Below are positions 13,099 through 63,402 of a stretch of 64,000 bases of DNA, piece after piece; positions within the stretch are counted from its first letter, which is position 1, and each line of letters opens with the position of its first letter. This DNA is from Heptranchias perlo (lineage: Eukaryota), in NCBI RefSeq assembly GCF_035084215.1, contig NC_090334.1, forward strand, positions 44,888,001 through 44,952,000. Reading direction: 5' to 3'. The notes beneath the pieces were generated by a model. That model searched no databases, was not told the origin of the DNA, and worked only from the letters and a program-made list of their open reading frames with translations. The position numbers were made by a program, and so were the translations under genes.

Positions 13099-13523
13099 GT
13101 TAGTCACATCTTTTTAACTTGAACATTTTTAGCCTGGGGAAGAGCTGGAATTTAAAAAAAATTCTTACAACATGTTTAATATTTTAACTTTGGGAAAAAC
13201 TGACCCAAATGTAGATGGTTTCTTGGATCCACAGCAAGTGTGGATCTGTGTGATTACTTTCAGTAAGCAGGATTGCAGTTCTCTTTTATGAATCTGACTG
13301 ATTAAGAGAAGCTATATGAAGACAAGGGCTCTGACCAAGGCTCCATCTGGGACAGGACAGCTCTATCTTAAGATGGGAGAAATCAAGGGCTCTGCTAAAG
13401 ATTAGAGGAAGGAAATTGTGAAATGTGTGTACACAAGCCATCAAAATTGTCTACATATTACAGTAGACCAACATTGCTGATGAAGTGTATATAACTTGAA
13501 CTCTTTGCCTACTGTTAATTTAG

Positions 13524-13573
13524 GATATTTCCCCAGATGAACTCAAGAATGAACTACCTGAACATCAACCCAG
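13524..13573 (+). CDS. GMFB: GMFB exon 4
   Basis: tttag|GAT; DISPDELKNELPEHQP(R); followed by the U12 donor ATATCCTT. Confidence 0.95.
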
Positions 13574-13694
13574 ATATCCTTTTCTTGCTTTTAAGTTTTG
13601 AGAAATCTTACTTATCTAATTTTTTTTTTCAGATCACTTATGCACAAAATAACATTGGAAATCCATATTTTAAATTATTTAAGTGAAATTTTAA

Positions 13695-16164: not shown

Positions 16165-16300
16165 TCTATTGTCTGCATTGTTAGCTAGACTCAGCTGGGC
16201 AGCGTTGAGGGCACTGCAATTGGCTTCCAGTGTCTCTAGGCCAGGGCTCCCTCGCCTAATTACTATCCTAGGATCTCTGCTGGACCATTGTGGATGAAAT
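16165..16300 (+). mobile_element. LF-SINE-like fragment
   Basis: ttagctagactcagctgggcagcgttgagggcactgcaattggc resembles the LF-SINE core as recalled. Confidence 0.5.
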
Positions 16301-16784
16301 ATCAGGAAGGGTTTCTAAGTTTATCGTGGCTGATTATATGTCATTTTTTTGTAATTCTCTTGCGCTATATATTGAGATGGGCTAGAAATAAAATTGACAG
16401 CTCGATCTACTTTGGGGGGGAAAAAAAAATACAACAGCATACTTGTTTAAAGTTGCAACTTTTCAATGGTTGAGTTCTTTGATTTGTATTTCAATGATTT
16501 AGTATGCTTAAGTTGCTTATTTGAACCGATGAGAAATGTGCAAAACTTGTTTTTATTCCTTTGGACAGGTTCAATGTGTTATCCACACATTTAATGTGTG
16601 ATGCACTATACAGAAGACTTTTTTTCATTTTATAATTACGGATAAGGAAGGCCATTCAGCCCATCTTAAAATAGATGAGGCAGGTTCACCATCACAAATT
16701 TTGTAATGGTTTTCTCAGTGTACCTACAACTGAAGTGTAGGTAATCCAATTTAAAACTGCTGTAGTTTTCTTAACTGTAACCAC

Positions 16785-16867
16785 ATTTGTAGTATATAGC
16801 TACAGATATAAACATACTGATGGAAGGATCTCCTATCCACAATGCTTTATATTCTCTAGTCCTTGTG
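16785..16867 (+). CDS. GMFB: GMFB exon 5
   Basis: ccac|A acceptor (AC) and G|gtaagt donor; [27 protein letters not shown]; 83 nt. Confidence 0.95.
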
Positions 16868-18821
16868 GTAAGTGGTCAATTTCTAAATTCTTTTTCAGTT
16901 TGTCTTTGTGTCAACACGTCACAATTTTTTCTTTTTGTTTCAACAGAATGATGTGTGGGTTTCCTGCCTGCTCTCTTCAAAGTTTAGCTTGTCCAACACT
17001 TTTCCATTTTTTTTCTTGCCTTTTTCATGTAGATTTTTTAAATGAATTTTTGCAAGATTGATTTATAAAGATATCCTTCTGGATAGGTCAATGTTGCTTC
17101 TGAAGATTCCTTTTTTTCCTGTAATGCTTGATGCAAGCATAATATGCCTTGATCTCATGCCATCTTGTAAAGGGTCGTAAATCTCCAATTTAAGAAACTT
17201 ATTCCTTGTTTCTATGACAATCTATTACTAAAGATATTCAGAATTATTCAAAGCAATTTGGGTAGAACATGCTGAAATGCTTATATATTGAAAATTGATA
17301 GAGGTTAGTGTTCTGTGGTGGAGGATGAAAAGACTGCTACAACTGCTAACTAATGTGTACATAAGTAAAATCACGCGCTCTTAACATTAAAGTCATAGCA
17401 ATACCATAGTGTACGCAACTCTTGTGCTGCACTATCTATTGCTGCTCAAATTGCTTTTTTGATATATTGCTCTATGATTCAACAAAAAAAATCAATGCAC
17501 TGTTGGCGTTACCAGGTACATCATACTGCTTTTTCCTAGACTCAGTTCGGGAATTCTGCAGTATGGGGAATCGGTCCTGTGTTCTATCTTGCTGTGGGAT
17601 AGCCTGATAACATTGTAATGCATTGTGTCACTTACCAAACCCTTTTTTTTTAAATACTAAGAAATTAACATAAATCAGCAATTCTGAAGGTTTTTTCTCA
17701 AATGTAATAATCCATTGCTTTTTCTCTTATTCAAACAGAATATATTTGTTTCCTTTTAATTGATTTCTCAATCCTATAGTGACTAGTTGCCATAATATTT
17801 CCTTAATTGAAATTTTTGAGTATATTACTGCTCTTCCACTAGTGAGTTGAAAAGTTAGTGTAAGCACTTGGTGATTTGTTGAATATAAAATGCAGAAGCT
17901 AATCATAGTTACTTTTGACTGCTGCAGCTCTTGCCACTTCAGGAACAGTGAAATGTAACCAGTTAGGATTGAACAATGTTAGATTAATAACCTGAAGTTT
18001 TTCTAGGATTTACTATGTGTTCCAGAAGAAATACTTTTTTTGGAAATTTTACCTATTTATTTTTATTCAGGCAAGTCTGCACCACTGCAAAACATACATG
18101 ATCTACTGAAAGAAAGTTGAATACTTATTTTAGAGTGGTTATTTGCATTAATATCACTAAAGAGCCTGAGTATAGCAAGTGCATAGTTTCTGGGTGTGTA
18201 TCTGGTTGTAATGTTATTGAGTATGATGACCAATGCACAAAAGCTTATCCCATATTACACCACACTGGGATTCAGAAATCAGTAGTTTAATGCTTCTGCT
18301 TTTAGCTGTTGAAATGTCAGTGCAGCAGCTGACACGGCCACATGTTAACACTATTATAGACGATGAAATCAATGGCACCAGCACTGATCTGCACGCTCAC
18401 TATATAGTAACCAAACTTTCTCTTCAGGTTTGAATTATGGAGTGCAATATCTGCTTGGTCTTCATATCCTACAATATTTTTCTTTTTCGAGCAAGTATCT
18501 AATACTGTTTTAAAACAATTCCAGGATTCTGTTTTAACTGGTTTGTGGCAAAAAAACCCTTCCTTTTTGATTCCTTTTTTGATCATCTTTAATCTGTGCC
18601 CTCTTGTAACATCATGCTGACCAGTGGAAACAATCTCTCACTCTTTAAGAATGTGAAGGTTTATATGGTAAAGACTTCTGTAAGAGAGAACTTTCTACGA
18701 CAAATTGCTATCCTGGGTGGAAGTAGGATTGGCTGTGAAGGATTGGGCAAATACAATCTATTCTAATTTAAAGATCAGTTACTTCTAGTTTGTAATGGCT
18801 TTCTGTGGCTTTTGATTTTAG

Positions 18822-18895
18822 GTTGTAAGCCTGAACAGCAGATGATATATGCTGGTAGCAAAATTGGATTGGTGGATATTGCACAATTTACCAAG
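18822..18895 (+). CDS. GMFB: GMFB exon 6
   Basis: tttag|GT ... AAG|gtgag; GCKPEQQMIYAGSKIGLVDIAQFTK; 74 nt. Confidence 0.95.
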
Positions 18896-20847
18896 GTGAG
18901 AGTTTATAATTTTAAGTATCAATTTTTTAACAGAACTTATGTACGTAGCTCTCATTTTTACAAGCTGATAACTATAATCTTCCCATTTTATAATGGTTTC
19001 CACATTTAAAGTGAATATTTGGTAGGTTTGGGATGTAGGAAAGAGACAATTAGGTGGTTTTGGTGAGGGGGTGGGAGGGAATGAAGAGACAATTGGGAGA
19101 AGGTTAAAACAATTCCTCTTTGCTAGAGGAACTATTCTAACAATTTCAGTCTCAGTGCTGTGCTATTGCTAGCAGAATGCAAGCCTTCGTTAGAGTATGA
19201 TGAGAAAGGGGAGAATGACAGCAAGCTGTTTGCATCATTTTTTCCCCTGGGCTATATGTTGTAGAATTGTATGTTTTATTTCTCAATGCTCTGACGTCAA
19301 CTTATTTGCATTTGCAGCATGAAATTTAGTATTTTTCAGCAATGGAACAACAACTGCACATGTGCAGTTATAGTGACTAGCTTTCTGACTGCGGGAGTTC
19401 TCCAATGTTGAAGGCCCATACAGGAAAACAACACAATAGCAGATTAAGAGTTTGGCCTGCCTGAGGCGAGAAAAGCTGCAGCATGTAGTGTGTGTGATGG
19501 CACCTGGTAGCCACCAGAGACATTATCATCTCAGTGTTTATTTTACAGTGCTGTCAAGTGGAGTTGCTGCTAATATAAATTACATTAGTTATTCCTGCAC
19601 GTGGCATCGAATTGTATGCTTTTTATTCCTTCACTAAACTTGGAAACTCAGTGTGTTGCGTAGGTTCCTCCTTTCTGTGTTGAATAAATTACCTTTTTAG
19701 GCTTGCTTGAATGATACTTCAAATGCAAATGACTGGTTACAAAGGATTTCAATTTTTTTTCCCCTCGTGGAGACAGATTCTTGCTGGGTATAATTATTTG
19801 GGTGCCAGCAATCCTCCAGTACCCTGCGCCAGTAAATATTAATGTGAGCTTAAGACATGTGTTGCAAGCAATCTCAGCTGACACAAAACCATTTCAGGTC
19901 CCTTGTCCATGCATGAGCATTTTCCAGGAAGGATCAATGGATAATAATCAGAAGTGGGAACTCCTTGCTGTTTGTTTTTCCCACTTTGTAGCGCATTGAG
20001 GCACTGAGATCAGTTGTGGTTGTCCAACTGCTTCTCTAGCTGAGATCAATTAATTTGGTACAAACTGGAGTGACTTTACCCACTAGCCATGGGGGAACTT
20101 AAGATACCAAGTTACACTCAGTTTATGCTGAATGCACTTGGGAATGGACTCCCCAGAGTGATGTTAGGAGCTGATAATTCAGTAATGATTTTATAATGAT
20201 TACCACCTCAGTCTGTCAGGAGATGTTGAATTTTAGTAGTGTTCCACTCTAAGTTCATCTTTCTCCTATGTCATGCACTCCATAATCAAGACTGCTTTCT
20301 TCCACCTCCTTCAACATTGCCCAACTCTGCACAACCTTTTTTCTTCCATTCCATCATTTAAACCCTAGTCCATGCCTTCCATCACTTTAATATCTCCATG
20401 GCCTTGCCTGACTTTGTCTGTAATTTCTTTCAGTCTTGTCCCCTTCTCTCTAAGATCAGGCTACTACTTGTTCCCTGCACCTTCAGACCATTGTTTAGTT
20501 GCCACTCATTCTGCTGATGCTCTCTGCTGTGTAACTCTTTGCCTAGTTCCTTGTAATCTTTCTCTCTGCTTTTTAAAAGCCTCTTCAAACCCTTGTCTTT
20601 AACCATGCCTTTGCCACCCACCTTTGTTTCCCCTCCTTCTCAGCATCCACTGTTTTTTCCTCCATATAAAGCACTTTGAAATGTATTCCTGCATGTAAAA
20701 AAACTCTATGGAATTGTTTTTCTCTACAATCTGTATCATTTGCAATTGCATATATGGGTGGCCAGAATTGGCCACCCATTCCTGATTTGAACAGTAGTCT
20801 GAGAATGGATTAAACTTGTAATTCCCTTAAACTACAAGTCTATACAC

Positions 20848-21005
20848 CCTGGTGACTCAGTGGGTAAATGAACTGCATGGTATGGTAGTGGATCATAACA
20901 TCCCAAATTTAGTCCATGATCTGTGCTGAATTAGCTAATCTCAGCTTGGTAAGCAGTGGGGTTAGTGAACCTGGCCTTTGCTTCTGTGGGCTTGGAAATA
21001 GAAAA
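20848..21005 (+). mobile_element. LF-SINE-like copy
   Basis: tRNA-like head tggtgactcagtgggtaaa plus core tctgtgctgaattagctaatctcagc. Confidence 0.55.
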
Positions 21006-21225
21006 AAAATTTGTAATTTTCTTTTTTTACACATTGCTTAATGCAAGTCAAGGATGGCTCGCCCATAGGGAAATGTTAGGCTCCAACTCGGTGTTTCCTT
21101 AAGTCTGCAAAGCTGAGAACAGGAGCAATGGTGACATCAGTTTAGAATCTCAAATCACTGCACCATTCTGTCTTTTGAAACAAAACTGCTTTTGTATTCT
21201 TGTGCCTTGTATTACGTTTGCTTTA

Positions 21226-22614
21226 CAGTAGGACCCTGGAATACTGAAACTATTTAATAAGCCCCTTGGCAACCTGAACACTCCCACGACTCATTCTGCA
21301 ACTTAATCTAGTGAGCAACAGGAAATCGATCTGTTGTCGTCTTCTACTCTTGCATAGACTTCTCCATAGGTTACAAGAGGAAGAGATAAAGGTCTGAGAC
21401 AGACTAATGGAGCTTAGGCTTGAAGGATGAATTATGGCAGAAGAGTTGCAGCTGATCATGGTGGCGTAGAGGCGACTATCAAATTGGAAGCAGAACCACT
21501 GCAAAGTAGAAGAAAGATGCTGTACTGTTGCCTCAAAGCATTGGTCCCTGCTGAGAAAGCAAAGCTGAATGAAATATTGTGGTTTACACAACAGAAAAGG
21601 GATATACCCACTAGTGATCCTATCCTAGAAGAGAAAGCACTGGTACCAAATGGATGACCAGGATTCACAGCCAGTTCAGGATGGCTGGATAGATGGGAAA
21701 TGGTGCCTTGATTAGGCAGCTGTCGTCTGACTTCAGCACTGTTTTGTAAAGGAAAAAAACTAAAGAAGGTTAAGGAAATCTATTTCCAGAACAAGTCTAA
21801 TACTGTGTGTTCCGGTAGCATTTTGTAGACTAGGTCCAACAAGATGCTAGCTGCATATGCAGATGTAGCTGGTCAAGATGCAAGCATAGCAAGGACCATC
21901 TTAGTCTTTGTATGCAGCAGCACATTTAAGTTACTGTTAGTGGTCTTCGGGAAACAAGTCAAGCTTCAAGTTCTCAATCTCAACTTCAGCTCACCTGGTC
22001 AGCCCGGTCTAATTCTTGGATAATTGTCAAGTTGTTCAGAATGGACATTTGCGTATCTTTCTCAATCAGCCCCAGCCCCGTGCTAGTGTTGATGTAATCT
22101 ATAGAGCAGGAGGCAGTTGAGGATCTGAGATAGAATGGTCAGCTGCTGTTTTTTGTCTTCACTGGTGGGGAAAGAAGCAAGCTGATGGTAGAAACTGAAA
22201 ACCATCAAAGTGAGTCATCAGCATGGGACAGTATACCTATGGCCACTCTCAGCAATTGCTGATCCAACATGCACAATGGCATCAATGCTGATGAATTGAA
22301 GGCTGCAAACACTTCCAGGCATACACAGGTAGATGAAGAGCACATTCACTTCTGAACAGCTGTTGAAACTGCTGCTAGGATGTGATGGGAAGATGATGCT
22401 ATCAGTCCAAAAGTATTTAGGATACAATCTGCTTTTGTAAAACGATATAGCTGCTGTCCAGGATTTATAAATTGTTTTAATTGTATAATATTTATTTCTA
22501 AATTGTTTAACATGTTTAAACAACCTTGTCCAGTATCTTGCACTGTTGTGAGCCTGAACAGTTAGCATCAACATATGTTCTGGTGGAGGTCATTCAGTAG
22601 TAATTAGGGCACTG
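21226..22614 (+). mobile_element. Decayed Tigger/pogo DNA transposon in GMFB intron 6
   Basis: CENP-B HTH remnants KAKLNEILWFTQQKRDIPTSDPILEEKAL and FTASSGWLDRW; DDE-like FKLLLVVFGK; TA-CAGT left end. Right end uncertain. Confidence 0.7.
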
Positions 22615-22938
22615 ATTATTCTGCAGCTTTCCTCTCCTTCCCCTGCTCCTTAAAAGCCTGGGGACAGTATTCATTGTTGAAGTTTAAAGTACAGTACAAT
22701 TCGAGAGCTTTCTTGAATAAGATTGAAATCTTGATGAGATTTTCCTGAATTGTAGAAATAAATCTAGTCTGTAGGTAAATGGCCAGAAATGTTGTCTTTG
22801 CTCAGTAACTGAAACACCAGTGTGCTATGCTATGGGTTGCCTCATAAAATTAGCATTGATCAAGGATTCATACTAATTTGTTGCACTTTAGAGATGAGTC
22901 ACATGAATTGGTGATTTAAGCATGTATTTTTCTTTCAG

Positions 22939-23010
22939 GTGTTTGAAATTAGAAATACAGAAGACTTGACTGAAGAGTGGCTCTGCAAGAAACTGGGATT
23001 TTTCCGTTAG
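22939..23010 (+). CDS. GMFB: GMFB exon 7 (terminal coding part)
   Basis: ttcag|GTG; VFEIRNTEDLTEEWLCKKLGFFR*. Exons sum to 429 nt = 142 aa + stop. Confidence 0.96.
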   Translation: MFEIRNTEDLTEEWLCKKLGFFR

Positions 23011-31419: not shown

Positions 31420-31860
31420 ATTAGGAGCCTATCACGACATCGTCTGAACCCCCACCGACCACCACGACGAGCTTGGGAGAAAGGACTGGTGCGTAACGAC
31501 GTGCTGACGTTGGCTGGTTCAATGACTGTGCCCGGCCGCTGCGCTGCTTGTCTGCCCTGATCCAAGATGGCGTTTACATTTGCGGCCTTTTGTTACATGT
31601 TGGCGCTGCTCCTCACCGCCGCCCTCATATTTTTTGCCATTTGGCATGTGAGTATCAGATTATTCCGCTTTTATATCTGCGCCGTTGTTATGGACCGTTC
31701 TTTTGAAAACGTGATTTCTTTTGGATAAATGTGGGAGGAGAGAAGCTGCTCTCGGTTGATTTGCCGGTTGGCTCGGCGGTTTGTGACTGCCGTCAGGCCC
31801 GAGGTGGGGAGGAGGGGGTTGCCCCACAGACTCTCAAGCTAAGACACCGATTTTCCACCT
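31420..31860 (+). promoter_or_regulatory. CNIH1 CpG-rich promoter
   Basis: CpG enrichment; CRE/ATF-like TGACGT at 31505-31510; YY1-like CAAGATGGCG overlapping the ATG. Confidence 0.6.
31567..31647 (+). CDS. CNIH1: Cornichon homolog 1, exon 1
   Basis: aagATGG start; [27 protein letters not shown]|gtgagt. Confidence 0.97.
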
Positions 31861-32299
31861 TCTCAGTAAATTATTTCGGAAATATTTTCTTATTCAGACC
31901 TTGTTACTTAAAACGACCTTAGGTTGAGGTGCGATCACTCTCCTTGAATGGAGCTGAGAACACATAGAATTGAATGAATCGATCAGTTTGGGATTATTGT
32001 TGCCACAGTCTGTGCAAATTGGCTTCAACATCCCGATTAATTCAGTACCGTATGGTCAGCTTTTCCAAATGGAAGGCTAGTTATTACAGCTTTTTGGATG
32101 CGTGCAACGGGGATGCAATTTAATATTTTTGTATTTAAAAGCTTTATTAAGAAGAGCGGTGCACGGTATATATTTAAATCAGATTCACCTTTATTTGGTT
32201 AAATATTCTAATCAACCAACGGTTTGTGAAATTGCAAATATTCAGGATAAGACATTAGCGAAGACGTAATTATGCTGTACCGTTAATATTCTTTTCCAG

Positions 32300-32368
32300 A
32301 TTATAGCATTTGATGAATTGAAGACGGACTACAAGAATCCTATAGACCAATGTAATACACTCAATCCT
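32300..32368 (+). CDS. CNIH1: CNIH1 exon 2
   Basis: ttccag| IIAFDELKTDYKNPIDQCNTLNP |gtaagt. Confidence 0.97.
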
Positions 32369-33289
32369 GTAAGTTATTGCGGGGTGATTTTGATTATTTA
32401 TGAACAGTTTGTTTTGCTTTTTATCTAAACGTTCCGTTTTCTCTGCCTGGAGAACAGTTTTTCTTTGAGTCTATTGTTTCACGCTTGCTTCATTTTTGTA
32501 TTCTGACTGTTGTTAATCTACAGTGATCTTGTCAGCTGTCGTACTAACATTCTTTCAATCTGCTTTTGTCATTTTTTTCGGCACAAAGACAGTTGTAAAG
32601 GTCAAAAAGATTAAAAGAGTCAAAATGGCATTTAAGGTTTGTACTAATTTCTAGTTAAAATGCCTTTCATTTTAAAACTTTTTCTTGGGGTCATATGTGA
32701 ACGTCTTTCAGGTCATAATTGACAATCTGTAGCAGTAAAATCAAGAATAATTCATTCACTTTTATTTGAAAAAAAATTGCTGTTTTATTACTGTAATGAA
32801 ATAAATGCCTGTAGTACAGGGGGTAGTACAATAAAAGTTTAACACGTATGCCATTTCTATGGGCTGATTGTATATGAGTGAATAATTTGGAACTATATAA
32901 TCTGAATAAAATTTGAAATTGATAAATGCAGTTTATATTAAGTACAGAATTGTTGTAAATTTTAACAGTAAAACAAATTCAGTAGAATTACTAAAGATGC
33001 ACAAAATCAAATGTTGAGGTCACTTAACTGAAAGACTATTGTAAATGACCCAGCCCAGCATCATCAAACATAACCCATTTTTGTGCATACAGTGGAACAT
33101 TTAGTTATTGTTGCTGATAAATATTCATTTTAATATTGAGACTCTGGTGGACAGTCTTTCAAGAAATGAAAAGATATTTTCAGAAAGCACATAAATTATT
33201 TATGAAAATATCAGTCTTTTAATTTTTAATTTATTGGCTGAAACTCTTTTGTTCACAAGATTAAAGATAATTATGGGTGCCAGAGTCCA

Positions 33290-34030
33290 ATTAACCAATC
33301 TTCTTTCATCCATGCAGAAAGACTTTCAAGTCCCCCACCTCCCCATCTCTATCTGGAGGTTCATTCCATCTGTTCCATGCCTTTTACTAGTTTGAGCCCA
33401 TGACCCCTCACCCTACTTTTGCAGTTCAGTTTGAAATAATTTTTCAGATTAACTTTCTCCATACTGTTTAATATCTTACATACCTCTAGAAGATTACTCC
33501 TGCATCACCTTTCTTCATAATTCACCCCTCTAACATTAGAGATCAGCTTCTTAGCTCTCCTGCATACTGCCTCTAGTGCCTGAACCTTATGTCTTTGTGT
33601 CCAGAACTGGAAACAGTACTCAAGGTGTGGTGTAATCAGAGCACTATAGAGTTAAAGCATGACTTCCTCTGACTTGTACTCTTATTGTTCTAGAAATATA
33701 ATTCAGCATTCTATTAGCTTTGTTGATTGCTGCTCTGCTTCGGTTGGACATACTGACTGTTGAGTCTACTGAGACACCTTGGTCTCTATCAACCTCATCC
33801 TTTCCTATTTCATCATCATCCATGGAGTGTGTGTGTCACCCATTTTTCCTTCCTATGTGCAGTACCTTACACTTGTCTGCATTAAATTTCATCTGCCATT
33901 GTTCTGCCCAGTTAGATATTTTGTCCAATACATTTTGTAATTTCTGAACCCCCTCATCCAAATCCACTGCCCTCTTAATTTGGTATCATAATCAAATTTG
34001 ACCAATTTGCATTGAGTTTCTGAATCCAAG
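33290..34030 (-). mobile_element. Old CR1 fragment in CNIH1 intron 2
   Basis: Reverse WQMKFNADKC and PHLEYCFQFW remnants. Confidence 0.7.
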
Positions 34031-34689
34031 TCATTGATGTAGATTAGAAATTGCATTTTTCAATAGAATACTTTTCAAAATTTAATTTTAAATTTGTCTC
34101 GATATAAGAATTAGTATCATGAGATTTTACATTGACAGGAGCAATCGGATGTTAGACTAAGTGGAGGAAAAATTAGAATTTCAGTGGCTTATGTATCACC
34201 AAATGTGAACACATGACTATCTACTTTGCTCAAACCACTTCACTGTGGACCATTTGCTAATGGAACGAATAGCTGCTCTGTTGTACATAGCTGCATGTCT
34301 TCGAGCAGAATCTTATTGCTGTAAATATGTATCAAACATTTTTTAAAGCACTTTAATTTAAGATATGTATCAAGTGCAGCTATTTAACATTTCAGGATTG
34401 CATATTTGTATAATTATTTTTGGTGTACCTTCTAGCAGTTTTAAAAAAAACTTTAAATTTTCCACCACCTATTTGCTTTAATCAAAGTTAAACCTCAACC
34501 TGCATTTATGCTGCTCATCCAACCAAGAAGGTATTCAGTTCAACTTGTGGCGATCATTATAGGTACAGACTACCCTCAAGGAATTGTGCTTGAATAATTG
34601 GGGAGGGATCTTTTGATGATGAGCTTTCTCCCAGAAGAAGCTCGGGTGCTAGGATCACCTACGACTAGTTTAAGTTGGGCCTTTCTAAT

Positions 34690-35410
34690 TAGAATCCAGT
34701 AGTGTTTGTAATTGCTGTGCTGTTCTTGAGTTCAAATTCCACCGTTGCAGTTTGAGAACTTTATATTCAGTTTGAAATAAATTTGCGAATAAAAAGCTGT
34801 AATCAGTAAAAGTGACCATGAAGCTGTCAGAATGTCGTATTAAACCCAACTACATCTACAAGATGCACTGCACCAACTCGCCAAGGCTTCTTCGACAGCA
34901 CCTCCCAAACCCACGACCTCTACCACCTAGAAGGACAAGGACAAGGGCAGCAGGCGCATTGGAACACCACCACCTGCATGTTCCCCTCCAAGTCACACAC
35001 CATCCCGACTTGGAAATATATTGCCGTTCCTTTGTCGTCGTTGGGTCAAAATCCTGGCACTCCCTACCTAACAGCACTGTGGGAGTACCTTCACCACATG
35101 GACTGCAGGCAGGCGGCTCACCACCACCTCCTTAAGGGCAATTAGGGATGGGCAATAAATGCTGGCCTTGCCAGCGACGTCCACATCCCATGAATGAATT
35201 AAAAAAAAACACAACTGGTTCACTGTTTTCTTTGCCCAGTCTGACCTATATGTGACTCCGGTCCCACACCAACATGGTTGACTCTTAACTGTCCTCTGAA
35301 GTGGCCTAAGCAAGCGACTCGGTTGTACCAAACTGCTACATCAGGGCATCTAGGGCTGGGCAATAAATTCTGCCTTTGCGAGCGGCACCCACATCCTGAA
35401 TGTGAATTTA
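34690..35410 (+). mobile_element. SINE interrupted by a HER1-like LINE 3' end (34850-35205)
   Basis: MHCTNSPRLLRQHLPNPRPLPPRRTR matches the element at 13695-15270; SINE-like sequence flanks it. Confidence 0.7.
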
Positions 35411-37171
35411 GAAAAAATCTCTTGGTCACCTTGGTCATCCTATTTTTTCCTCCAGTTTTTTTTCTTCACCATTTTTCTTCCTGAAGAAAGGGACTTGTAT
35501 AGAGTTTCAGTTTCACGGTTGATGGTAGTTTATTTTAGTACCTCATCCAAGCAGTTATTGATGTGTGAGTGTGTACAATCAGCATCAGTGGGTTTGAGGT
35601 CATTACAGATGAGCCTGATCCAGCCTTCATATGGTGTTTTTTTATGAACTTCCAGGATGTTTACCATTTTTCTTTCTCTCTGAAGCCAGCTGTAGTACCC
35701 TCACTGTTTCCATTGCGAAGAATGGTCTGTTTTACAGTGTCCTAACATGCAGTGCATTCACTCACTGAACCACTACTTGCATCTTTCTGCCTTTTTGGGT
35801 AAAGAGACGGCTCTTAGACATGGATTTAGAATTTTGTGCAATATTTCATTGAGTAGTAGTGATGAATTTTCAGAAGTTTTTTTAAGTTTGTATCCCCATC
35901 CATTCAACCCCACCCAAACTGCTTGCAGCCCAGGCTCCTACTGGTTAAAAGACAGGTGAGAAAGCAGTGAAAGTGATACACATTTTAAAAGAAACTTATC
36001 TAAATTTATAATATCTAGCATTGAGACTGATGTTACAATATTGGTGAACCATTAGATTTCCTGATAGTAAATAGCTTCATTTGATATTGTAATTAAAGCA
36101 GGGCAGAGGTAGACACTATTGATCTTTTGTGACTTGCTAGGCTGTGAAATCTGTCCTCATTAGCATCTTTTTGCCTATTCACATTTTGCATTTTGGCATC
36201 CCTATATATGCTGAAATGACTAGGGTTTCTGCTCGACCCCTAGGCTTGCTATAGTTTCCTAGATATTGGGCTGGTAAAAATCCATAGCAGTTTGTAGGGA
36301 GCGAGGGCTTTTTATGTGAGTGATTGTTGATGATAAATCTGAGGAGAATATGAAGTAAAAATGTAACATAGATTTAATGTTTTAATATTTCCTAATGCGT
36401 TCGCACAGACACTATAGACGCTTTAATTTGGTTACTGTAACTGCTGAGAGAGGTTCTCAGCTATCTTTCTCCGTATTGGAGGAAATGCATGTTATTTGCC
36501 TGTGTTGAATGCACTTCAAAAGATGGATGAGTTAGCATTGTTAAGGTGGACTGCTGAATGAGTAGGATCTGTTAAGTCTAACATAGTATTGTTCATGAGC
36601 TGCTACCACACCTGCCTATCTGATCCCTTAATTTAGTTATGGGACAGAGGGTGAATGCACAGCTTTCATACACTCTTGTCCAGAAAGGTGGTGGTGTTTA
36701 AAACATTTCTTTCCTGACCGCCAGAAGGAAACACAGCTAATCATTTAGGATTGCCAGCCAAGTGATGGCAAAGTAACCATACATGTTTATGAAAAGGGAC
36801 AGGAAAAGAACAACTGGTCCATCTAGATGTGGTGCAGCCTACATGCACCATTGATCCAGTCCTCAATCATGCAATCTTCTGGGAGAGGCAAAATAAGAGA
36901 AAAGGCATTGGGCCAATTTAGGAAAAAATTCTGGGAAGATTCTCTCTAACCCCAGGAGGAAATCAAACCAGCTCAAGGAGGCTGAATTAACTGATGATAC
37001 CAGTGACTTTGAGCTTCACCTACCTTTCCAAACCTCGAGATGTCTTCCACTTGCAGAAAGTTGCTTAGTTTCACACTTGTAAATATTGATATTGGGAAAA
37101 TCTGTCAGGATAATTGTTGCCTTAGAACCATTCTGTGATTGACAGTTGTATTTAATATGGAGACCAGACAG

Positions 37172-37330
37172 NNNNNNNNNNNNNNNNNNNNNNNNNNNNN
37201 NNNNNNNNNNNNNNNNNNNNNNNNNNNNNNNNNNNNNNNNNNNNNNNNNNNNNNNNNNNNNNNNNNNNNNNNNNNNNNNNNNNNNNNNNNNNNNNNNNNN
37301 NNNNNNNNNNNNNNNNNNNNNNNNNNNNNN
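37172..37330. other. Assembly gap (159 N)
   Basis: Run of N. Confidence 1.
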
Positions 37331-37676
37331 CTCTCTTACTCTCTCCTCCCCTTCTCTCTCTCTTACTCTCTCTCCTCCCCCTTCTCTCTCTCTCTTACTC
37401 TCTCTCCTCCCCTTCTCTCTCACTCTCTCTCCTCTCCCTTCTCTCTCTCTTACTCTCTCTCCTCCCCCTTCTCTCTCTCTTACTCTCTCTCCTCCCCCTT
37501 CTCTCTCTCACTCTCTCTCCTCCCCCTTCTCTCTCTCTCTCTTACTCACTCTCCTCCCCTTCTCTCTCTCTCTTACTCTCTCTCCTCCCCTTCTCTCTCT
37601 TACTCTCTCTCCTCCCCCTTCTCTCTTACTCTCTCTCCTCCCCCTTTTACTCTCTCTCTCCCCCCTTCTCTCTCTC
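37331..37676. repeat. Pyrimidine-rich minisatellite, unit about 29-33 bp (ctctcttactctctctcctcccccttctct)
   Basis: About 11 imperfect tandem units abutting the gap. Confidence 0.9.
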
Positions 37677-40600
37677 GCCCGCCTGCATAGCCTGAATAGT
37701 GCACTTTGTTTTGACGGTGTTCAGTGCCATAGGAGGTCAATTAGATTATATAAAATTTTGAGAGCATCTGTAAACCTCCTAATTCAAAATACATACCACC
37801 TTAATTGTAAAATGACTTCATGCGTGTGTGTGTGTGTGTGTGTATTACATGATAAAGCTTTTAAAAAAAAAATATTCGTAACTGGAAAAAAACAGAAACC
37901 AGGATATCTTGCAGAATCTGACATTCCACTTGGCAATTTTGACTCAGTTTGTATAAATCTTAATCCTTGCCTTAATATACAGCTACCTAAATATTAAAGC
38001 ATTTCCTCTGGTCTTTGTTTGCTAGTTGAAAGAATACTCATAGTTTTTGCTCAACAATGTTCTCTGTACTTATCTTTCAAAAATCCTCTTGTGGAACACT
38101 CATTAGATATGAAGGTCTGCCTTTTTGAACTACTGCAGCGTAGGCTAAATTGCATTTAAACAAGACCACAGAAAAGTTAGGTAATATATTGTACCACTTC
38201 TTTGACCAAGCTTTTGGTCACCTACTTAATATCTCCTTATGTGGCATCAGTGTCAAATTTTGTTTGATAATGTTGCAGTGAAGCACTGTGGGACATTTTA
38301 CTATATTATAGTGCTGTATAAATGCAACTTGTTGTATGATACAGTAAAAACTTGATTATCTGCCTTCATGATCAGACTGAGCTGGGAGAACAGCTGGAGT
38401 TGGGTCCAAGAGACCAGCAGGGGTCAAGGCAACAGGGCAGAGGACCAGCACAGATCGGGACCAGTGGCCTGTTGAGAAATCAGCAGCAGTCAGCAATCTG
38501 ATTAAATAAATGCTTTTAACAAACCTTCTACATAATATTACTTAAACCATTTATGTACAGGTAAAAATATCATGTGACCTCTTCAGTATACTTTTAACTA
38601 ATGCAAATTAGGTATGGTAGTATAATGCTGGACTAGCAACAAATAGGGCTTGAGAATTCAAATCCTGTAAATTGTGAAATTGAATTCAATAAATCTGGTA
38701 ATTTGTGGGCTAGCACTGGAAAAATGACCATGAAAGCTTCCAGATGGTTGTTAAAAACTCAACTGGTTCATCACTGTCCTTCAGGGAAGAGAAATTGCCA
38801 CCCCTACTCATTCTAGACTACAGATGACTCCAGCCCCACACTACGTGGTTTACTGTTAATGCCCTCAGGGCAATGTGGATGGACAATAAATACCACCTTA
38901 CCAGTGTGTCCCACATCCCAAAAACAATTTTTTTTAAAAAAGCTTACACTAATTTATGTTCTGTGTGCTGAAACTAAACTTTCACTGTTTGAAATGTTAA
39001 AAAAAGTTAAGCATTGCACTCTGTTTTCCATACAGTTGAACCTATATTATCTGCCAATTCCTATTTTTCTGGATTTGGGGGCGTCCCTTCCATTATGGCA
39101 TTAATCATAATTCCACTGTGCTTGCTCTCTTTCAAACCAAATTTAGAAAAATGGAATGGAGTGTTTGGAAGTAACCATTTCATCTTGGCAAATTGTAACC
39201 TTCATTGTGTAAAATGACCCACACTACAGACTGTTTCTATCATGAAAACTAAAGATTGCTCTGTGAATATGGGTGCAGGACAAGATTACACAACATTCTG
39301 ATGTGATGTGTATTGTGACGCTGAGGCAATCTTAACAGTTCCCTAGTGGATGTGACCCCATGGCAAAAAACGTCCTTAAATTGGTAATTTCACTCTGGTA
39401 CTCCACTAAAGGTGACTGATGTGAGAAGCAGAATGATTAACACAGGTGCACTAAGGGTGCTCTTCTGTGTAGAGGCTAAAGAATACTGTTGGGCAGAATA
39501 AAGGGAACTTTGCTCTTTAGCTGATCTACTGTGCCTGACTTAGGAATGCTTGGTATTGACATTGGGAGACAAAATTGCAAAAATATTCCACTTGTCGGCA
39601 CTGTCATCCTTCATTTTGATGAGTACATAATTCACCTCCAAAAATTTGAAGGGGAGAAAAAATGATTCTAAATTTAAAAAAAATTCTGAACACTTCTCTT
39701 TCCTTGTTTTCTCTTTTCCATCCTCTATTTTTATTTTAGCTTTACAAATTTTTAAAAAAAAACTTGAAGCATTAGACCTTTGTTCCTGAGCCCACAAATC
39801 CTGCCAATTGAGGGTCAGAAGTTTGAAGATTGACGTGATTGCAGGCCAGTCAGCTCTTGACGTGGTTTTTTTCTAGTGTCAAATTTAAAATCTGATCACT
39901 CAACGAGTTATTTTGTTTGCTTCTTAGTTGTACCTGGATGAGACCTTGTTGGTAGTGCTCTAAGGATTAAGGTTCATTAAGAACAAGCTGCAATATTAGA
40001 GATTACAGATGTCTTAACTATTTTAGAAGGTAGCAACAGAATTACCAATTTCCATTACCTTGCATGCTGTATGGATGCTACACGTCTTGCTTTACTCCAA
40101 ACTGCTGTTCCTGTTTGTGCTTTGTAACAACTACATCATTTGAATGAGATTTTTTGTTAGAATTATTCCACTCAGTGTGCTGCTCCTATTGTTCTGACAT
40201 GCTTGCCTCTCATCAGAAGTACATGGGTGCACTAAGGCTGCTCTTCTCATCAGATGTACAACTTGGATAGGACATAGAAAAATATTCTGAAGAAATATTT
40301 ATTAATTTTTACATTTTTAGTTGAAAGAGACATTTTTGTTTATCTTCCTTAGATTCTATGCAGTTATCTTTTTTTATCTGTATCCGATATGATCTATTTC
40401 TTTTCCCCCATATTGTAATCAGTGTTGAGAAATGACACTTTCCATGGAACTTAGCAGAGTAAAGTACCTCCACTTCCCAACACAACCATTCCTGAGATTT
40501 TTGAGAATGTCAATTTGGGGCTAATTACTGCTGGATTATGATTGGTATTATGGATTTGCATCCATTAGGAACTGGATTGAGACTGTTCAAATGTTTACTT

Positions 40601-40924
40601 GGAATTCATGGAGCCAACAGATAAAAGAAACTTTCATTCCCTTAGACTGGTTGGATTTGAACCCAGGTCTCAGAGGTAAAAGTGCAGTGTTTTAATATGC
40701 TGTGTTACAGAGTACCAGATGTGGAACTTTTGAGAATTATCCCATTGTACTCAAAAGAAACCCTGTTGAAATTGTCCATTGCTTTGGTGACTCTGAAACA
40801 TTGGTACAATGGGATATCTTTTGATTTAAAAAAAAACATTTTTAATAGGTTGATTTTTTTTTTGCCAGGATATAAGTGTAAGCAAGTGTAGTAAAACATA
40901 CTAATTTTAAGATTTTTTTTTCAG

Positions 40925-41037
40925 CTGGTACTTCCCGAGTACCTCATCCATGCCTTCTTCTGTGTCATGTTTCTCTGTGCAGCAGAGTGGCTTACACTGG
41001 GTCTCAATATGCCATTGCTGGGCTACCATATTTGGAG
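40925..41037 (+). CDS. CNIH1: CNIH1 exon 3
   Basis: tttcag| [37 protein letters not shown](R) |gtaagt. Confidence 0.97.
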
Positions 41038-44000
41038 GTAAGTAGCTTATTGTCTGCCATTTTCTATCTAATGTGTTTTCAGCTTTTTTCTTGAATAGAT
41101 AATTGAATTTATCATGCTAAATATACATCAGCTGTCTTGTAGTTTATTTGCAACCAAAGTTGTACTTTAAGTTCTGTCTCTACATTCTGTGTATTTTTCC
41201 TTAAGCCTAGCACAAGATCTCTCCTATTTATAAGCACATTGGAATACTGAAATTCTGAAAACTTGGATGTTGGACAGAGAGACACCTGATGTCACGCCAG
41301 AATGAATAAAGTTTGCTTTATGAAAATTTGATAATTGAGCTTATTCTGATACCCAATGAATTCAATCTAGCAATAATTCTTGACACATCTGTCATTAAAA
41401 TGGCTGTAAATATGCAAAACCTGGTGAGAGAGTACATAATCTTCATCAATTAAGATTGTTTCAAATTGAACATTCCTGATTAGCATACCTGGCAAATTTA
41501 ACATTACTGAAATGTTCAATTAGGCTGCAAAGTCACAATAGACTTTTACAGAGACAAACTGGGTCTGTGTGTCAATGATGCCCAGAAAAGAAATGGAAAC
41601 AAATAATCTGAATAATATATGGGACATATGACCTGCTGACCTCTCTTTATTTGAAGCAATAATATAATGTACTAAACATAATGGAGGACAGCTGATTCCA
41701 CAACTTAAATAACTGCATGTACTTTCTGGCAGCAGGTTGCAATATTATTTTGTCTACAGAAAATTAAAAATTCAAACACGATTAGATGCTAGCACTTGAC
41801 TTGATGCTCTGCTTACTAAAACGCACAGATATGATTGAGTCTTCTACTACGTTGTGAGGTCAGTGAACCAGGAAGCAATTGGCTGAAGGCTTATTACTCT
41901 TGTGAATAATAGGTATTGCAGCCTACAAACCCAGAATTACCAGTAGCTTTTTCAAAATCCATCTTTTGTAGATGGAATCATCGGAAATACATACTGTAAG
42001 AAGCAGCACAAGTGTTGAAACAAATGCTTACCATGGCAGTAAATGCATGTAAATCCATATTTTCATGTCAGAAATTTATAGCTGCTTTTAAATTCACACA
42101 TTAATTGCCACAGAGTTTCATAATTTTAAAGGTGTCCTCGCAAGAAAACTTAAATTTTCTAGCACCCTATCACGTCTCAAATATCCCAAAACACTTCAGA
42201 AAAAACAAATAAATACAGTCACTATTGTTATGTAGGCAAACATTGCAGCCAATTTGTACACCGCAAAGTCCCATAAACAGCAACAAGATAAATAAAGAGT
42301 TGATCTATTTTTGGTGGTGTTGGTCGAGAAATGAATGTTGGTGAGCATACCAGGAAAACTCAGCTCTCCAGATAGTGCAATGGAATCTGTACACGTCCAT
42401 GTGAACTGGCAGACTGTTTAATGTCTCATCTGAAGGACTCCTTTGGCACTACACTAAAGTGCTGGCCCAGATTATGTGTTCATTTGGAGGTAGAATTACT
42501 GATACTAATCCTGTGCTTGATTGTGTACTTCTTACTTTCCATATATAGTATCTGTTGCATTCCAAATGTTGCACTTTATTCAGTTGCGATTTATTAGTGT
42601 TTTATGCAATTTTCAAAGAAGTGTAGAAAAAGAGAAAGAAAACTGATTATCTCTTGCTATTTTAGCTGGTCTTGAGACATCCTAGAGAGGGCTTTTGTGA
42701 TAACAAGGGGAGCTAAGTAAATGCCAATCTAGAGAGACTTCTAACAACAATAATTAGCCTCTAAATTTACTTTGGGACCTAATTAGACCACTTCCCCCAA
42801 GGATGCCTGACCCATGGCCTTTAAGAAGACATGCCAGTTTAGCATCTAAAATTATAACCATGCTTCAGACCCCAGACTACCCATGAGCAATACCATGGGG
42901 GTTCAGTTATGATATATTTAGTGGGGGGGTGTGCAGAGAATAACCTGCATGTCCTCTGATAATACCAGCATTTTAAAAGTGAAGCAGTGTGCTTGAATAT
43001 ATTTCTCTTCTCCCTCCCCAAAATAGTGTGGGCTCGCAATGTTCCCTATTTACTATTTGATTATGTTGTACTTTAAATACTATCTTAATTTTTAAATTTT
43101 GTTTTTCAAAGTGAAATTTAACTCCAAGTATTGAAGGAATGAAACAGATGGCCCAAAGTAAAGTTTACATTCCCAGCATTTATAGCTAAGTATCAGTATC
43201 AAATTGAAGCAGTGAAGTAAGAGTCAGAGAAAAATTTGGTCTGATGAACAGTTGATGTCTTTTCTGAAAATGAAAGTTAATTAAGACTGTTAATACATAT
43301 AGAATGTAGTAATTTGAGCATTTTTGAACAGATTTAAAAAAAAATATGCACTCCATTTAAATGTTTCCTGAAACAGTATACTATACAGATAATGTAATAC
43401 GTTTTGGAACTGTGATCTGACGATGACATTTCAAGTAAGCGGTATAAAGCAATAACATTTTAGGTCCAACAACATAACACACTTTTTAGCTGTTCGAGGC
43501 TTACCAGAAGCATGAGGAAGACAACCCAGTGAATCTTGCTTCAGTCTTCATTGAGGAGTTCAAAGAAACTTGCTTGGTTCTCTGCAAACCTGTGGTAGGC
43601 ATACATGGAGGATTATCACAAGATGTCATCAAGTCTGGATGCTTTTTTAAAATTAATTGCTCCTTCCATCAACAAAAGGAACACGGTGACCCCATTATTC
43701 AGTTTGTTGAATAGACGTCCAGGGTTGCTGAGTAGTTACAGAATTGATGTATATAACGGGTGAGGAGTGACTTATTGTTTGCATAGGGAGTTGGATGGCT
43801 TCCAGAGAGCTGCACATAGGCATGACTGGCTTCCAGAGAGCCACAAATCATTGGTCAGAAACGGTAAGAAAAGTTATTTGGCAGAAACCTGGACTTCTAT
43901 GAACATTGTCTCTTCCCCCCCCCCCCCCCCATCCAGTAATTGGATTAATCCAAAAAAGAACCTGTTTGTCTATGGCCATGATTGTGATCCACGGCTATTA

Positions 44001-45014
44001 CCGAGCATCAATTATGCATATCAGACATGGGGAACCTCTGTTTCATTGGTTCATACAGAAACACCTGCAAAGAAATGTTCAGAGCCAGCTAGATTGTTGG
44101 GACGGTGGAGTACACATCCAACTTGATGAACCTAAAAAAAAAGGCAAGATGAATGACCTAAAGAATTAATAGGTGGCATGCTGCGATGCTGCATCATGTT
44201 GGATACGAACTTAAGCATTGAAAAAGAATAGGCCATTCGGCTCATCAAGGCTGATCTTTCCACAGACCAGGTGCAATCTACTCCATCTGTTTAATTTCCC
44301 ATGGGGAACGACCTGCACAAATGCTCAGGATCCCCAAAGGAATCAAGCAAACTCCAGAATATCTGCTAATTCCCACATTTCCAGTACTCGGCCATGGCTC
44401 GGTGGCTGTTTCTAGCCCCAGCAGCGCAGGAATCATTATATTCTGTGGAATACAACTACTACTGATAATTTGAAGTCATTTTTTCTGCTAAAGGTTTTGA
44501 ATTATCTAATAATTGGAATTAAGCAATGTAAATAATACAAAGTGTGAATTTAGTGCTAAAAAATTGAATTATCAGAGATATTTGAACTATGAGGAGTAGA
44601 TTTCATTTGTCATCCCATTTTCTACTTATCTCCATATCCTTCCCTGTCCACTACCCTTTAGCATGGTGGGAGTGACAAGAGAGAATAATTATTTGGAGGA
44701 GACTGGTTCAAATTTCTATAAATGCAAGTAGGTGCTGTTACTGCAAGTCAAATAACCTGTTCTTAGTTTCCCCATGTGTGCTTCTCCAGCATCTTGGATA
44801 CCAGAACCATGTCTTTTCCCTTTCAAAAAAAAATCCAATAAAAACAAGCTCAGCTTTGTGAATTTCTCAGCTTATATAAAACCTAAGTCCAAGAATCATC
44901 CTTGGTCTCTGAACCCTCTCATCATTTGATGCATCATGATTCATCAATGTCAGCAACAACTTGTACCTTTTTAATGTAAGACCCCAAAGCGCTTCACAAA
45001 TGGGTTTATTTGAA

Positions 45015-45408
45015 GATGGAACAGGTGTAGGCCATTCAGCCTCCCGAGCCTATTCTGCCATTCAATAAGATCATGGCTGACCTGTCCCTCGACGCTATTT
45101 ATCTGCCTTTGATCCATATCCCTTGATACCTTTCCCTAATAAAAATCTATCAGTCTTGAAAATTTCAATTGACCTAGCATGCACAGCCTTTTGGGGGAAA
45201 TAATTCCACATTTCTACTACCCTTTGTGTGGAAAAAGTGCTTCCTGATTTCACTTCTGAATGGTCTAGCTCTAATTTTAATACGTGCCCCCTTGATTCTC
45301 CCACCAGAGGAAACAAGTACTCTGTCTACTCTATCGTGTCCGTTTATCATTTTAAGCACCTCAATTAGGTCACCCCTCAACTTTCTAAATTCAAGGAAAT
45401 ACAACCCT
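45015..45408 (-). mobile_element. CR1 3' fragment
   Basis: LEFRKLRGDLIEV and TQRVVEMWN. Confidence 0.8.
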
Positions 45409-46058
45409 TGATTGCTAAAAATCTCTCAGTATTCTGATGATTTATACAATGTGTGGCTATGGTTATGTGAATACTCAGAAGCTGACTTCTTTCCATTAAC
45501 TGATGAAGATGAGTAAAACAAGTGTTCTGGTCCCTCTTTTATTCCAGACTACGAACAAAGCCAAATATAGTAATACTCTTGGGAACACCCTGACAGTTTC
45601 TTGAAAACTTGTGATCTGAGGCACTTTCTAAAAAAGATGCTATTATGTGTTTGATTTATGGTTTTCTAAACAAAGTGAAGAAGAATTATTTTACTTCCAT
45701 TATTGTCTGAATAGTTGTGCATCAGTTTTTCAATGAGAGTCACAAAGCCAGTTTATATCCAAAATATTTATTTTTTCCAATTTTATTGAGTTTACCTATC
45801 AAATTGCTTTTTAAATTATTAAATTAAATAATGCAATGAAATGAGATGAATTTTCTACGTAGTCCACAAAGTTACTTTTATGGCTGTTGTTCCTTATTTT
45901 GTATTGAGCCCGTGCTTTATAAATGATCTGTAAACAGTCTGCTCAATTCTAAGCTTAATCATATGTTGATCACTTTTGCATTTAATAATAGAAAAGGTGA
46001 CTTTTTCACAAGTTAATTGACTACATTCCGTTTTAATCAAAAAAAATTCTATTTGCAG

Positions 46059-46202
46059 GTACATGACTAGACCAGTAATGAGCGTTCCAGGTCTCTATGA
46101 TCCAACCACTATTATGAATGCTGATATACTAGCATACTGTCAGAAGGAAGGGTGGTGCAAACTAGCATTCTACCTGTTGTCTTTTTTTTACTACCTATAT
46201 GG
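46059..46202 (+). CDS. CNIH1: CNIH1 exon 4
   Basis: ttgcag|G; [47 protein letters not shown](G) |gtaagt. Confidence 0.97.
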
Positions 46203-46829
46203 GTAAGTTAATACAAAGGTGAATTATATTTTTATGACTATTTTCTCATTTTTACCACTGACATTTGTGTACCACACTTTAATTATAAATATCCATAGTA
46301 TAGTAAATTTAGAATGACTTGGACGCTTTTTAAGTACTAAACTTAAGGTATCGGGATTCTTGCTTGTTCTCAGACAAGACAATATTTTTTAATTGAGAAA
46401 CTTAGGTGAAGAACCAAGACTGTCACTGCAGATTAAAAAGAATAGAAGATGAGATAAAATGAGAAATAATGGTTGGGTAATGTTAAGCTCGGGTTTTAAA
46501 ACCCTATAGAAGGAAGGAGAGCTGAGGAAGTTAATGGAGTTCCTGAGTTTTGAGGTCCCAGGAAACGAAGAGCTGAAGTAGAAGACTGGGCAATGAATCA
46601 ATTTCAAGACCGAGGGGAGGCAAAAAGTGTACAGGATGACATACTTGGAATTAAGAAGGAACAAAAGGAAAAAGTTAGAGGGATAATGACCATAGTAATA
46701 ATGATAAAATACAGACAAAAAAATTGCATTGGAGGGAGAATGATTAGAAATGCAGGAGAGAGAAAGATTACCTATCAGATTTCTTGTATCCCATCCAGAA
46801 GCATTGAAAAGGTGGTAGAAGAGCCTTTT

Positions 46830-52808: not shown

Positions 52809-52898
52809 TTATCTTGACACTGATCGTGCTGCAGAGTCGTCTTTTGTTGCCAGGTACATTGCCACATTACCCCGAAAATCGTGTAAGTAGTTGTATTG
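52809..52898 (-). CDS. CDKN3: CDKN3 exon 8 (terminal coding part)
   Basis: tgacag| QYNYLHDFRGNVAMYLATKDDSAARSVSR* (TAA). Confidence 0.95.
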   Translation of the reverse strand, partial: QYNYLHDFRGNVAMYLATKDDSAARSVSR

Positions 52899-56571: not shown

Positions 56572-56675
56572 CTTCACTGTTTGTATTGCTCCAGCTCCTC
56601 TTAATTTACGAAGAAGGTCAATTGCTTCTTCTGGCAGCATGGTCTCAGACAGCTGAAGTAGAAGACATGCTGCAA
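56572..56675 (-). CDS. CDKN3: CDKN3 exon 7
   Basis: cctag|TT ... AAG|gtaaag; (I)AACLLLQLSETMLPEEAIDLLRKLRGAGAIQTVK; 104 nt. Confidence 0.95.
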
Positions 56676-56689
56676 CTAGGAGACACAAT

Positions 56690-58219: not shown

Positions 58220-58251
58220 TTAGACATGAGCATCCAAGGCCTCCATAACAT
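58220..58251 (-). CDS. CDKN3: CDKN3 exon 6 (catalytic P-loop exon)
   Basis: ttgcag|A TGT TAT GGA GGC CTT GGA TGC TCA TGT CTA A|gtaagt = (Q)CYGGLGCSCL; 32 nt. Confidence 0.92.
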
Positions 58252-62609: not shown

Positions 62610-62832
62610 TGGATAAGGGTCCTTCTGTCATTTTCCAAGCAGATTCTCAACTCTTCCAGAATTTTCCAACAGCTAGCAATATCTGGAACACTTCCATCAG
62701 GAAAAGGATAGTGATACACCATGAATCCCTGTTGCTGGTACGATTCCAGTAAGCCTGGAACCCTGTATTTCACCATTTCTCCTTTGGTACAGAACACAAA
62801 TACATCTTGTATGTTGTGGCTCTTGAGCTCCT
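62610..62832 (-). CDS. CDKN3: CDKN3 exon 5
   Basis: tgacag|AG ... CA|gtagg; ELKSHNIQDVFVFCTKGEMVKYRVPGLL...YPFPDGSVPDIASC...RRTLI; 223 nt. Confidence 0.95.
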
Positions 62833-63357: not shown

Positions 63358-63402
63358 CTAAATCTTTTTGAAGGTTTCTTCTTACATCTTTAAATTTACA
63401 AC
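63358..63402 (-). CDS. CDKN3: Cyclin-dependent kinase inhibitor 3 (KAP phosphatase), exon 4; exons 1-3 lie beyond the window
   Basis: aaacag|GT ... G|gtaatg; GCKFKDVRRNLQKDL(E); 45 nt. Confidence 0.93.

Follow-up and report, generated by a model that had tools for sequence, protein, structure and literature searches.

Cysteine at the P-loop arginine position of a shark CDKN3/KAP: a predicted pseudophosphatase

The CDKN3/KAP gene of the shark Heptranchias perlo raises the question of whether a phosphatase that carries cysteine in place of the CX5R arginine of its P-loop can still be an enzyme and, if it cannot, why the protein is kept. An earlier note on this DNA had proposed a catalytically dead or weakened CDK-binding protein in which two changes, His to Gln and Arg to Cys, had struck a single motif. 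Residues are numbered here as in the Heptranchias protein P0002; the human number is the P0002 number plus 6.

The CDKN3 locus, its transcripts and its copy number

The window analyzed is the whole stretch of 64,000 nt (G000:C10:44888001-44952000), and the CDKN3/KAP gene lies on its minus strand. Read on the plus strand, positions 58220-58251 contain no motif; the motif was found on the minus strand, which the earlier note had left unstated. All of the following CDKN3 features are on this strand. Exon 4 (63358..63402, 45 nt, in frame) encodes Lys48, the counterpart of human Lys54, which contacts Tyr15 of CDK2. Exon 5 (62610..62832, 223 nt) contains the unchanged Asp104 codon of the FPDG motif (62696..62698; human Asp110, which we take to be the general acid of KAP), and its last two bases begin the Gln133 codon. 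Exon 6 (58220..58251, 32 nt) encodes the P-loop C-Y-G-G-L-G-C-S, in which the catalytic Cys134 codon TGT (58248..58250; human Cys140) is kept and a TGC codon for Cys140 (58230..58232) stands at the CX5R Arg position (human Arg146). Exon 7 (56572..56675, 104 nt) encodes the Q-loop, with Gly172 (human Gly178, Gly kept; codon at 56590..56592, a position counted manually along exon 7) and Val177 (human Ile183, a contact of the CDK2 GDSEID patch), and the coding part of exon 8 with its stop (52809..52898) encodes Tyr180 (human Tyr186, likewise a CDK2 contact).

The canonical GT-AG sites and the lack of stops described in the earlier note were borne out: there are AG acceptors throughout and GT donors on exons 4-7, and the joined exons 4-8 form a single open frame with its stop in exon 8 (FPDG ... 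IQCYGGLGCSCL ... AIQTVKQY). The exon 5/6 splice yields QCYGGLGCS from the codons CAA TGT TAT GGA GGC CTT GGA TGC TCA, and the same codons were found in the genome and in the spliced contig X1. Exons 1-3 are located outside the window, within the next 13 kb of G000:C10, and splice in frame, giving eight intact exons in total. Exon 1 contributes an MVNL start, as in relatives, and the translation of exons 2-8 equals P0002, named at its source as CDKN3 isoform X1 of Heptranchias perlo, letter for letter.

Tail to tail with CDKN3 is a CNIH1-like gene on the plus strand (31567..46206, with coding pieces near 31567, 32300, 40925, and 46060), and two GMFB-like coding pieces are found on the same strand (9833..22990, the end being approximate; near 9833 and 22939). 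Both neighbors were named from motifs and compared with the human gene order, and their names are putative; the presence of such exons downstream of CDKN3 indicates that this is the true CDKN3 locus. Several LINE-like and SINE-like repeat pieces of putative families are scattered over introns 5-7 (window 54500-61500), with reverse-transcriptase-like frames near 59811-61457. An intron of the CNIH1-like gene contains two open frames side by side, 74 and 120 residues long (43490-44126, plus strand), which had no Pfam match at an E value of 0.01 and probably represent a broken mobile element.

Two spliced contigs cover the altered codon. Contig X1 (organism A) shows no differences over exon 5 and runs on through the first 30 letters of exon 6, its Gln and Cys codons being those of the genome; since it is spliced, it is derived from RNA. 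It is the only organism A contig read across the codon and possibly comes from the genome's own sample (the run type was guessed), so that it serves as a check on base calling and splicing and not on the population. Contig X7 comes from a different organism and differs at 23 of 226 letters. It uses the same exon 5/6 splice and also reads TGC, with three codons close by changed synonymously; its four listed amino acid changes fit the batoid pattern of P0011. The codon was reached in two of four runs (X5 has no contig there, and the X9 contigs end at or enter intron 5). Contigs of X2 and X9 cross from exon 5 into intron 5 (window 62556-62609) and represent unspliced or intron-retaining RNA, and many CDKN3 records in the databases likewise stop after exon 5. 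Exon 4 (63358-63402) is covered in X2 and X5 and is skipped in frame in contigs X1 and X7, which come from two organisms. This skipping, which removes Lys48, is also seen in many shark, ray, and chimaera records.

The search of the genome with exon 5 returned one match among the five candidates scored, and that with an exon 6 pattern permitting Arg or Cys codons also returned one, as did a reversed control pattern. Neither search revealed a second intact CDKN3 copy in the H. perlo genome, and within introns 5-6 there was no alternative exon 6, the next-best 32-mer having 13 mismatches. A metagenome scan for exon 6 of relatives gave no matches. Of the points that the earlier note had put forward for checking, a second copy and an alternative exon were looked for in these searches, and the contigs, in which CGC and CAC or CAT codons might have appeared, read TGC (X1 and X7) and the same Gln codon (X1). 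A single base-call error, which the note had held to be less likely, is opposed by the TGC codon in spliced contigs of two organisms. An artefact, be it such an error, a misassigned exon 6, editing of the RNA that restores Arg, or a further intact copy, could be argued from a possibly incomplete assembly, from the single organism A contig, and from the fact that contigs drop rare variants; given the two organisms with TGC, the Cys found in records of five other species (see below), and the failure to find a second exon 5 or exon 6, we consider it extremely improbable.

Distribution of the two motif changes

To compile chondrichthyan CDKN3 sequences, we used three protein searches and two cluster look-ups, which provided 63 records from 21 species and 22 genes. 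The motif was Gln-Cys...Arg in 46 records and Gln-Cys...Cys in 15; the remaining two are chimaera models with a mis-joined exon 6 (P0020 and P0232), which stay in the raw counts and were not taken as motif changes. The alignment across sharks, rays, and chimaera confirmed the change in Heptranchias and showed it to be wider than first described. His is replaced by Gln in all 21 species, chimaera included, whereas Arg is replaced by Cys in 6 of the 21, belonging to six orders. The pair of changes is thus not a private double hit of one species, as the earlier note had supposed. Cys140 is carried by two squalomorph sharks (Heptranchias and Pristiophorus), a skate (Rhinoraja), an electric ray (Narcine), a sawfish (Pristis), and one of the two genes of the horn shark Heterodontus. 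Arg is found in Callorhinchus, four species of the stingray group, ten other galeomorph sharks, and the second Heterodontus gene. Neither His nor any other residue was seen at this position in chondrichthyans.

Both residues are nearly invariant elsewhere. Among 207 non-chondrichthyan records examined, with isoforms counted separately, Arg was present in 200 of the 201 aligned and His in 199 of 202. The Gln rows P0032, P0094, and P0248 are other exon joins or fragments, kept in the raw counts and not taken as motif changes, and P0043 was omitted from the conservation count of the 22 genes and the non-chondrichthyan records. The sole exception for Arg is P0184 of the frog Pelodytes ibericus (HCYGGLGCS, known as a record only), whose Arg-to-Cys change is, on the sequences compared, independent of those in chondrichthyans. 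In more distant relatives, 109 rows of 175 aligned covered the P-loop; 105 of them have Arg, 4 are without it, and none has Cys.

The two Heterodontus francisci proteins, P0003 and P0135, are encoded on one contig and differ at only two residues, Arg/Cys140 and Cys/Ser142, both in exon 6; they are either tandem duplicates or the products of two haplotypes. In Scyliorhinus canicula, too, the CDKN3-like records fall into two sets, with Arg in both. Several other records depart from the consensus at different sites. In Rhinoraja longicauda P0228, Ser replaces Cys73 (human Cys79), which is Cys in 203 of 204 non-chondrichthyan records. In Diceros and Equus (P0033, P0034, P0035, and P0233), His replaces the acid Asp (PIPHGG), which makes the CDKN3 of the horse family and rhinoceros a further candidate for a weakened KAP lineage, judged from sequence. 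P0091 (Rhineura floridana), P0123, P0177, P0180, and P0252 show the catalytic Cys changed to Gly or the acid Asp changed to Val, Gly, Asn, or Glu; these are single records and may be errors.

Conserved residues, fold, and predicted activity

The Heptranchias protein matches Pfam family PF05706 (1.4e-78, 262.8 bits), and its structure model (pLDDT 83) has KAP itself as its best Foldseek matches (1FPZ and 1FQ1; rmsd 1.4-1.7, about 67-68% identity). P0002 falls within the chondrichthyan CDKN3 clade, and sequence and model together identify the gene as a CDKN3/KAP orthologue with a predicted KAP-fold product. Of the residues that characterize active HCX5R PTP/DUSP enzymes, the catalytic Cys, the acid Asp, the P-loop Ser, and the Q-loop Gln are present; the P-loop Arg and the His preceding the Cys are not. 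Cys134, Asp104, Ser141, and Gln175/179 show no change across the 22 chondrichthyan genes, those with Cys140 included. The CDK2-contact sites are Lys, Val or Ile, and Tyr in all 22 (Lys48, Val177, and Tyr180 in Heptranchias), and Val at the position of human Ile183 is also found in 89 of 200 non-chondrichthyan records.

These data bear on whether the gene has begun to decay. Early pseudogenization, with the function already gone, would account for the absence of an essential catalytic residue, and the low depth of contig X1 (8.6) gives no sign of strong expression, although contigs cannot measure expression. Against it, the same Cys occurs in intact genes of six orders, and the Heptranchias gene has eight in-frame exons. 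The terminal branches of the five species that have only the Cys form are short (0.019-0.079 changes per site), and among the products of the 21 shark and ray genes, P0002 is the most similar to that of the chimaera (84.1% identity). Synonymous codon differences are in excess over exon 5: 9 synonymous and 4 nonsynonymous codons relative to contig X7 (14 of 23 differences listed), and 8 and 3 relative to contig X9 (13 of 17 listed). The conserved Cys134, Asp104, and CDK2 contacts and the short Cys branches indicate that there is no decay, and we regard pseudogenization as very unlikely and largely refuted. The gene lacks an essential residue and is intact, transcribed (as judged from spliced contigs whose run type was guessed), and, to judge from branch lengths and codon differences, under purifying selection. 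Heptranchias CDKN3 is hence classified, from its sequence, as a predicted pseudophosphatase.

The effect of the two substitutions on activity can be estimated from other phosphatases. The P-loop Arg binds the substrate phosphate (PMC7589817). PTEN has disease alleles at the same two motif positions, H123Q being the same substitution as that in KAP. At the Arg position, R130Q leaves PTEN nearly without activity and R130L is unable to suppress AKT. H123Q costs the enzyme 60-80% of its in vitro activity, yet AKT suppression persists in cells (PMC7754348, PMC4316932); the variant has been left unclassified elsewhere (PMC7190743). The part of the earlier proposal that attributed inactivity to both changes needs to be qualified, since partly active PTEN H123Q implies that His to Gln alone probably does not abolish activity. 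By analogy with PTEN, the Gln-plus-Arg forms of KAP are probably weakened and the Gln-plus-Cys form is probably near dead, an analogy drawn from a different enzyme, a lipid phosphatase, and from other substitutions (Gln and Leu); no data on Arg to Cys were found.

The earlier idea of a dead or weakened CDK-binding protein otherwise stands as the best reading, its activity being predicted: the change is real and spliced, no second intact copy was found in the genome, and the gene is not decaying. We consider it probable, if by no means assured, that this intact, spliced KAP, the one copy found, with Cys for the P-loop Arg, is almost or entirely inactive as a phosphatase and has been retained for docking on CDKs. 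If the Arg side chain is missing, the phosphate would not be held and the transition state would not be stabilized, and CDK2-pT160 (and CDK1-pT161) would be dephosphorylated at no useful rate. Human KAP docks on the GDSEID patch of CDK2 via Ile183 and Tyr186, with Lys54 touching Tyr15, and its docking site is common to CKS1 and CDC25A (PMC11316097, 10.1101/2024.06.03.596235). The C-terminal helix of the Heptranchias protein, with Val177 and Tyr180, would still dock on this patch of monomeric CDK1/2, where the protein could compete at the site shared by CKS1 and CDC25A or shield the T-loop. Such a docking or competing role would be the simplest reason for keeping the protein. A CDKN3 C79S mutant described as phosphatase-dead localized normally (PMC3691455).

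Several observations stand against the docking reading. Cys134 and Asp104 are invariant even in species with Cys140, where erosion might be anticipated had the site been dead for long, and the exon 4-skipping form (X1 and X7) is devoid of the Lys48 contact. In leukemic cells, growth suppression by human CDKN3 depends on the catalytic Cys, C140S having no effect (PMC4216094), so that even mammals provide no established case of a purely noncatalytic role. The invariance of the remaining catalytic residues would also suit a Cys form that retains weak or altered chemistry, either as slow turnover that relies on backbone amides and Lys48 for phosphate binding or as a redox switch of the P-loop cysteines, together with Cys73. 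The restriction of chondrichthyan site 140 to Arg or Cys and the independent change in Pelodytes point in the same direction. Nevertheless, no compensating Arg or Lys was found that all five Cys-only species have and both Arg-bearing clades lack, Cys73 is lost in the skate, and Arg substitutions kill PTEN; we consider retained chemistry unlikely, without dismissing it.

Evolution of position 140 and relation to known pseudophosphatases

Turning to the history of the site, we analyzed one isoform per gene by tree and parsimony, with the motif site masked in the protein tree. Apart from the batoid fork, this tree fits the species tree as we take it to be; the support for the chondrichthyan CDKN3 clade was 99/97. 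Position 140 requires four changes on two accepted batoid topologies and three if the Cys-bearing batoids form one clade; the neighboring sites 133-139 and 141 require none. Such counts do not distinguish gain from loss of Arg140: from the sequences, either Cys140 would have four or five parallel origins or there would have been at least one return to Arg. In Heptranchias, CpG codons encode three further Arg residues (R166 CGT, R187 CGG, and R203 CGA); these show no change on the same tree, and a mutable codon alone is thus insufficient to explain the changes at position 140. The lability is not unique: 63 sites reach at least 97% conservation outside chondrichthyans, and within the group 55 of them show no change and 5 have three or four changes. 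On the docking reading, His to Gln on the chondrichthyan stem would have weakened the enzyme first, leaving the Arg position free to alternate between Arg and Cys at least three to four times.

Position 172 may be linked to this alternation. We take Gly172 to match Gly259 of PTP1B, a substrate-specificity site. Gly is present in 192 of 199 non-chondrichthyan records and also in archaeal PTPs. Among chondrichthyans, it is found in the five Cys-only species and the chimaera, and each Arg-bearing shark or ray has Arg or Ala in its place. The five Cys-only species are uniform at 155 sites. Two of these sites differ in every one of the 11 Arg-bearing galeomorph genes and eight in each of the 4 stingray-group genes, and both sets include 140 and 172. 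The crude chance of this overlap is 7/154 (~0.045), for a pattern found post hoc in two independent clades, and for these reasons the covariation, new in this analysis and seen in sequences, is offered as a lead only. It is conceivable, though we hold this tentatively, that Arg was lost once in the shark and ray ancestor, leaving a CDK-docking pseudophosphatase, and was regained twice, in stingrays and galeomorphs, each time with replacement of Gly172.

The same pattern might also mean that sharks and rays as a whole already have a KAP of low activity, in which Arg/Cys alternates almost neutrally at a mutable codon, with His to Gln plus either Arg140Cys or Gly172Arg/Ala as alternative routes to a weak enzyme. 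All 20 elasmobranch species have Arg140Cys or a replaced Gly172, the chimaera alone having neither. The horn shark copies differ at only two residues, which shows that the switch is possible in a short time, and CDKN3 is reported lost in Xenopus (PMC9178385), so that the gene is dispensable in some vertebrates. Set against this are the unchanged CpG-codon Arg residues, the lack of any Arg-to-His change, the other CpG outcome, and the mildness of Gly to Ala. On balance, we judge a neutral flip to be decidedly unlikely.

STYX and MK-STYX are without the catalytic Cys. Like them, EGG-4/5 and tensin 1 have inactive PTP/DUSP domains that act through binding (PMC3507883, PMC13199840); EGG-4/5 and tensin 1 are also without the catalytic Cys (PMC3507883). 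All of these proteins may still grip phosphate via Arg. The Heptranchias KAP, in contrast, has kept the Cys and lost the Arg and is therefore predicted to bind phospho-sites poorly. In this it resembles the PTP-like domain of auxilin, in which the Cys is kept, the HCX5R Arg is lost, and inactivity is predicted (PMC3507883). The auxilin domain, however, is of the PTEN type and part of a larger protein, whereas the Heptranchias protein is a stand-alone CDK phosphatase in which the loss varies among related lineages. Its closest comparisons are the orthologues. Human KAP (1FPZ, 1FQ1), whose pairing with CDK2 has been solved structurally, has the same Cys, Asp, Q-loop Gln, and CDK2 contacts and is an active pThr160 phosphatase, while the Heptranchias protein has, in human numbers, His139 to Gln and Arg146 to Cys. 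The Arg-bearing proteins of chimaera, stingrays, and galeomorphs are 81-91% identical to that of Heptranchias and share Gln for His; they differ in keeping Arg and, in sharks and rays, in having Arg or Ala for Gly172.

Domains of this kind without Arg are thus already known from auxilin. Two sources list CDKN3 solely as an active enzyme (PMC13199840, PMC5618612), and a literature search provided no report of a motif change in fish or shark CDKN3, though a mention may exist in the original KAP papers, in phosphatome surveys or their tables, or in subscription journals; the Arg change in CDKN3 is apparently unreported. An Arg-less case that varies by lineage would extend the known pseudophosphatases, and it carries a warning, as databases label such proteins CDKN3 with no remark on activity. 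In mammals, it is difficult to tell the enzymatic role of KAP from its CDK-binding role. Near-identical KAPs with and without the catalytic Arg form natural pairs in sharks and rays, the two horn shark copies included, and these pairs bear on the noncatalytic core of KAP function and on whether an enzyme may lose and regain its key residue. If Arg was indeed lost and then regained, this would be a natural, repeated reactivation of a cell cycle enzyme, both states of which are carried by the horn shark copies.
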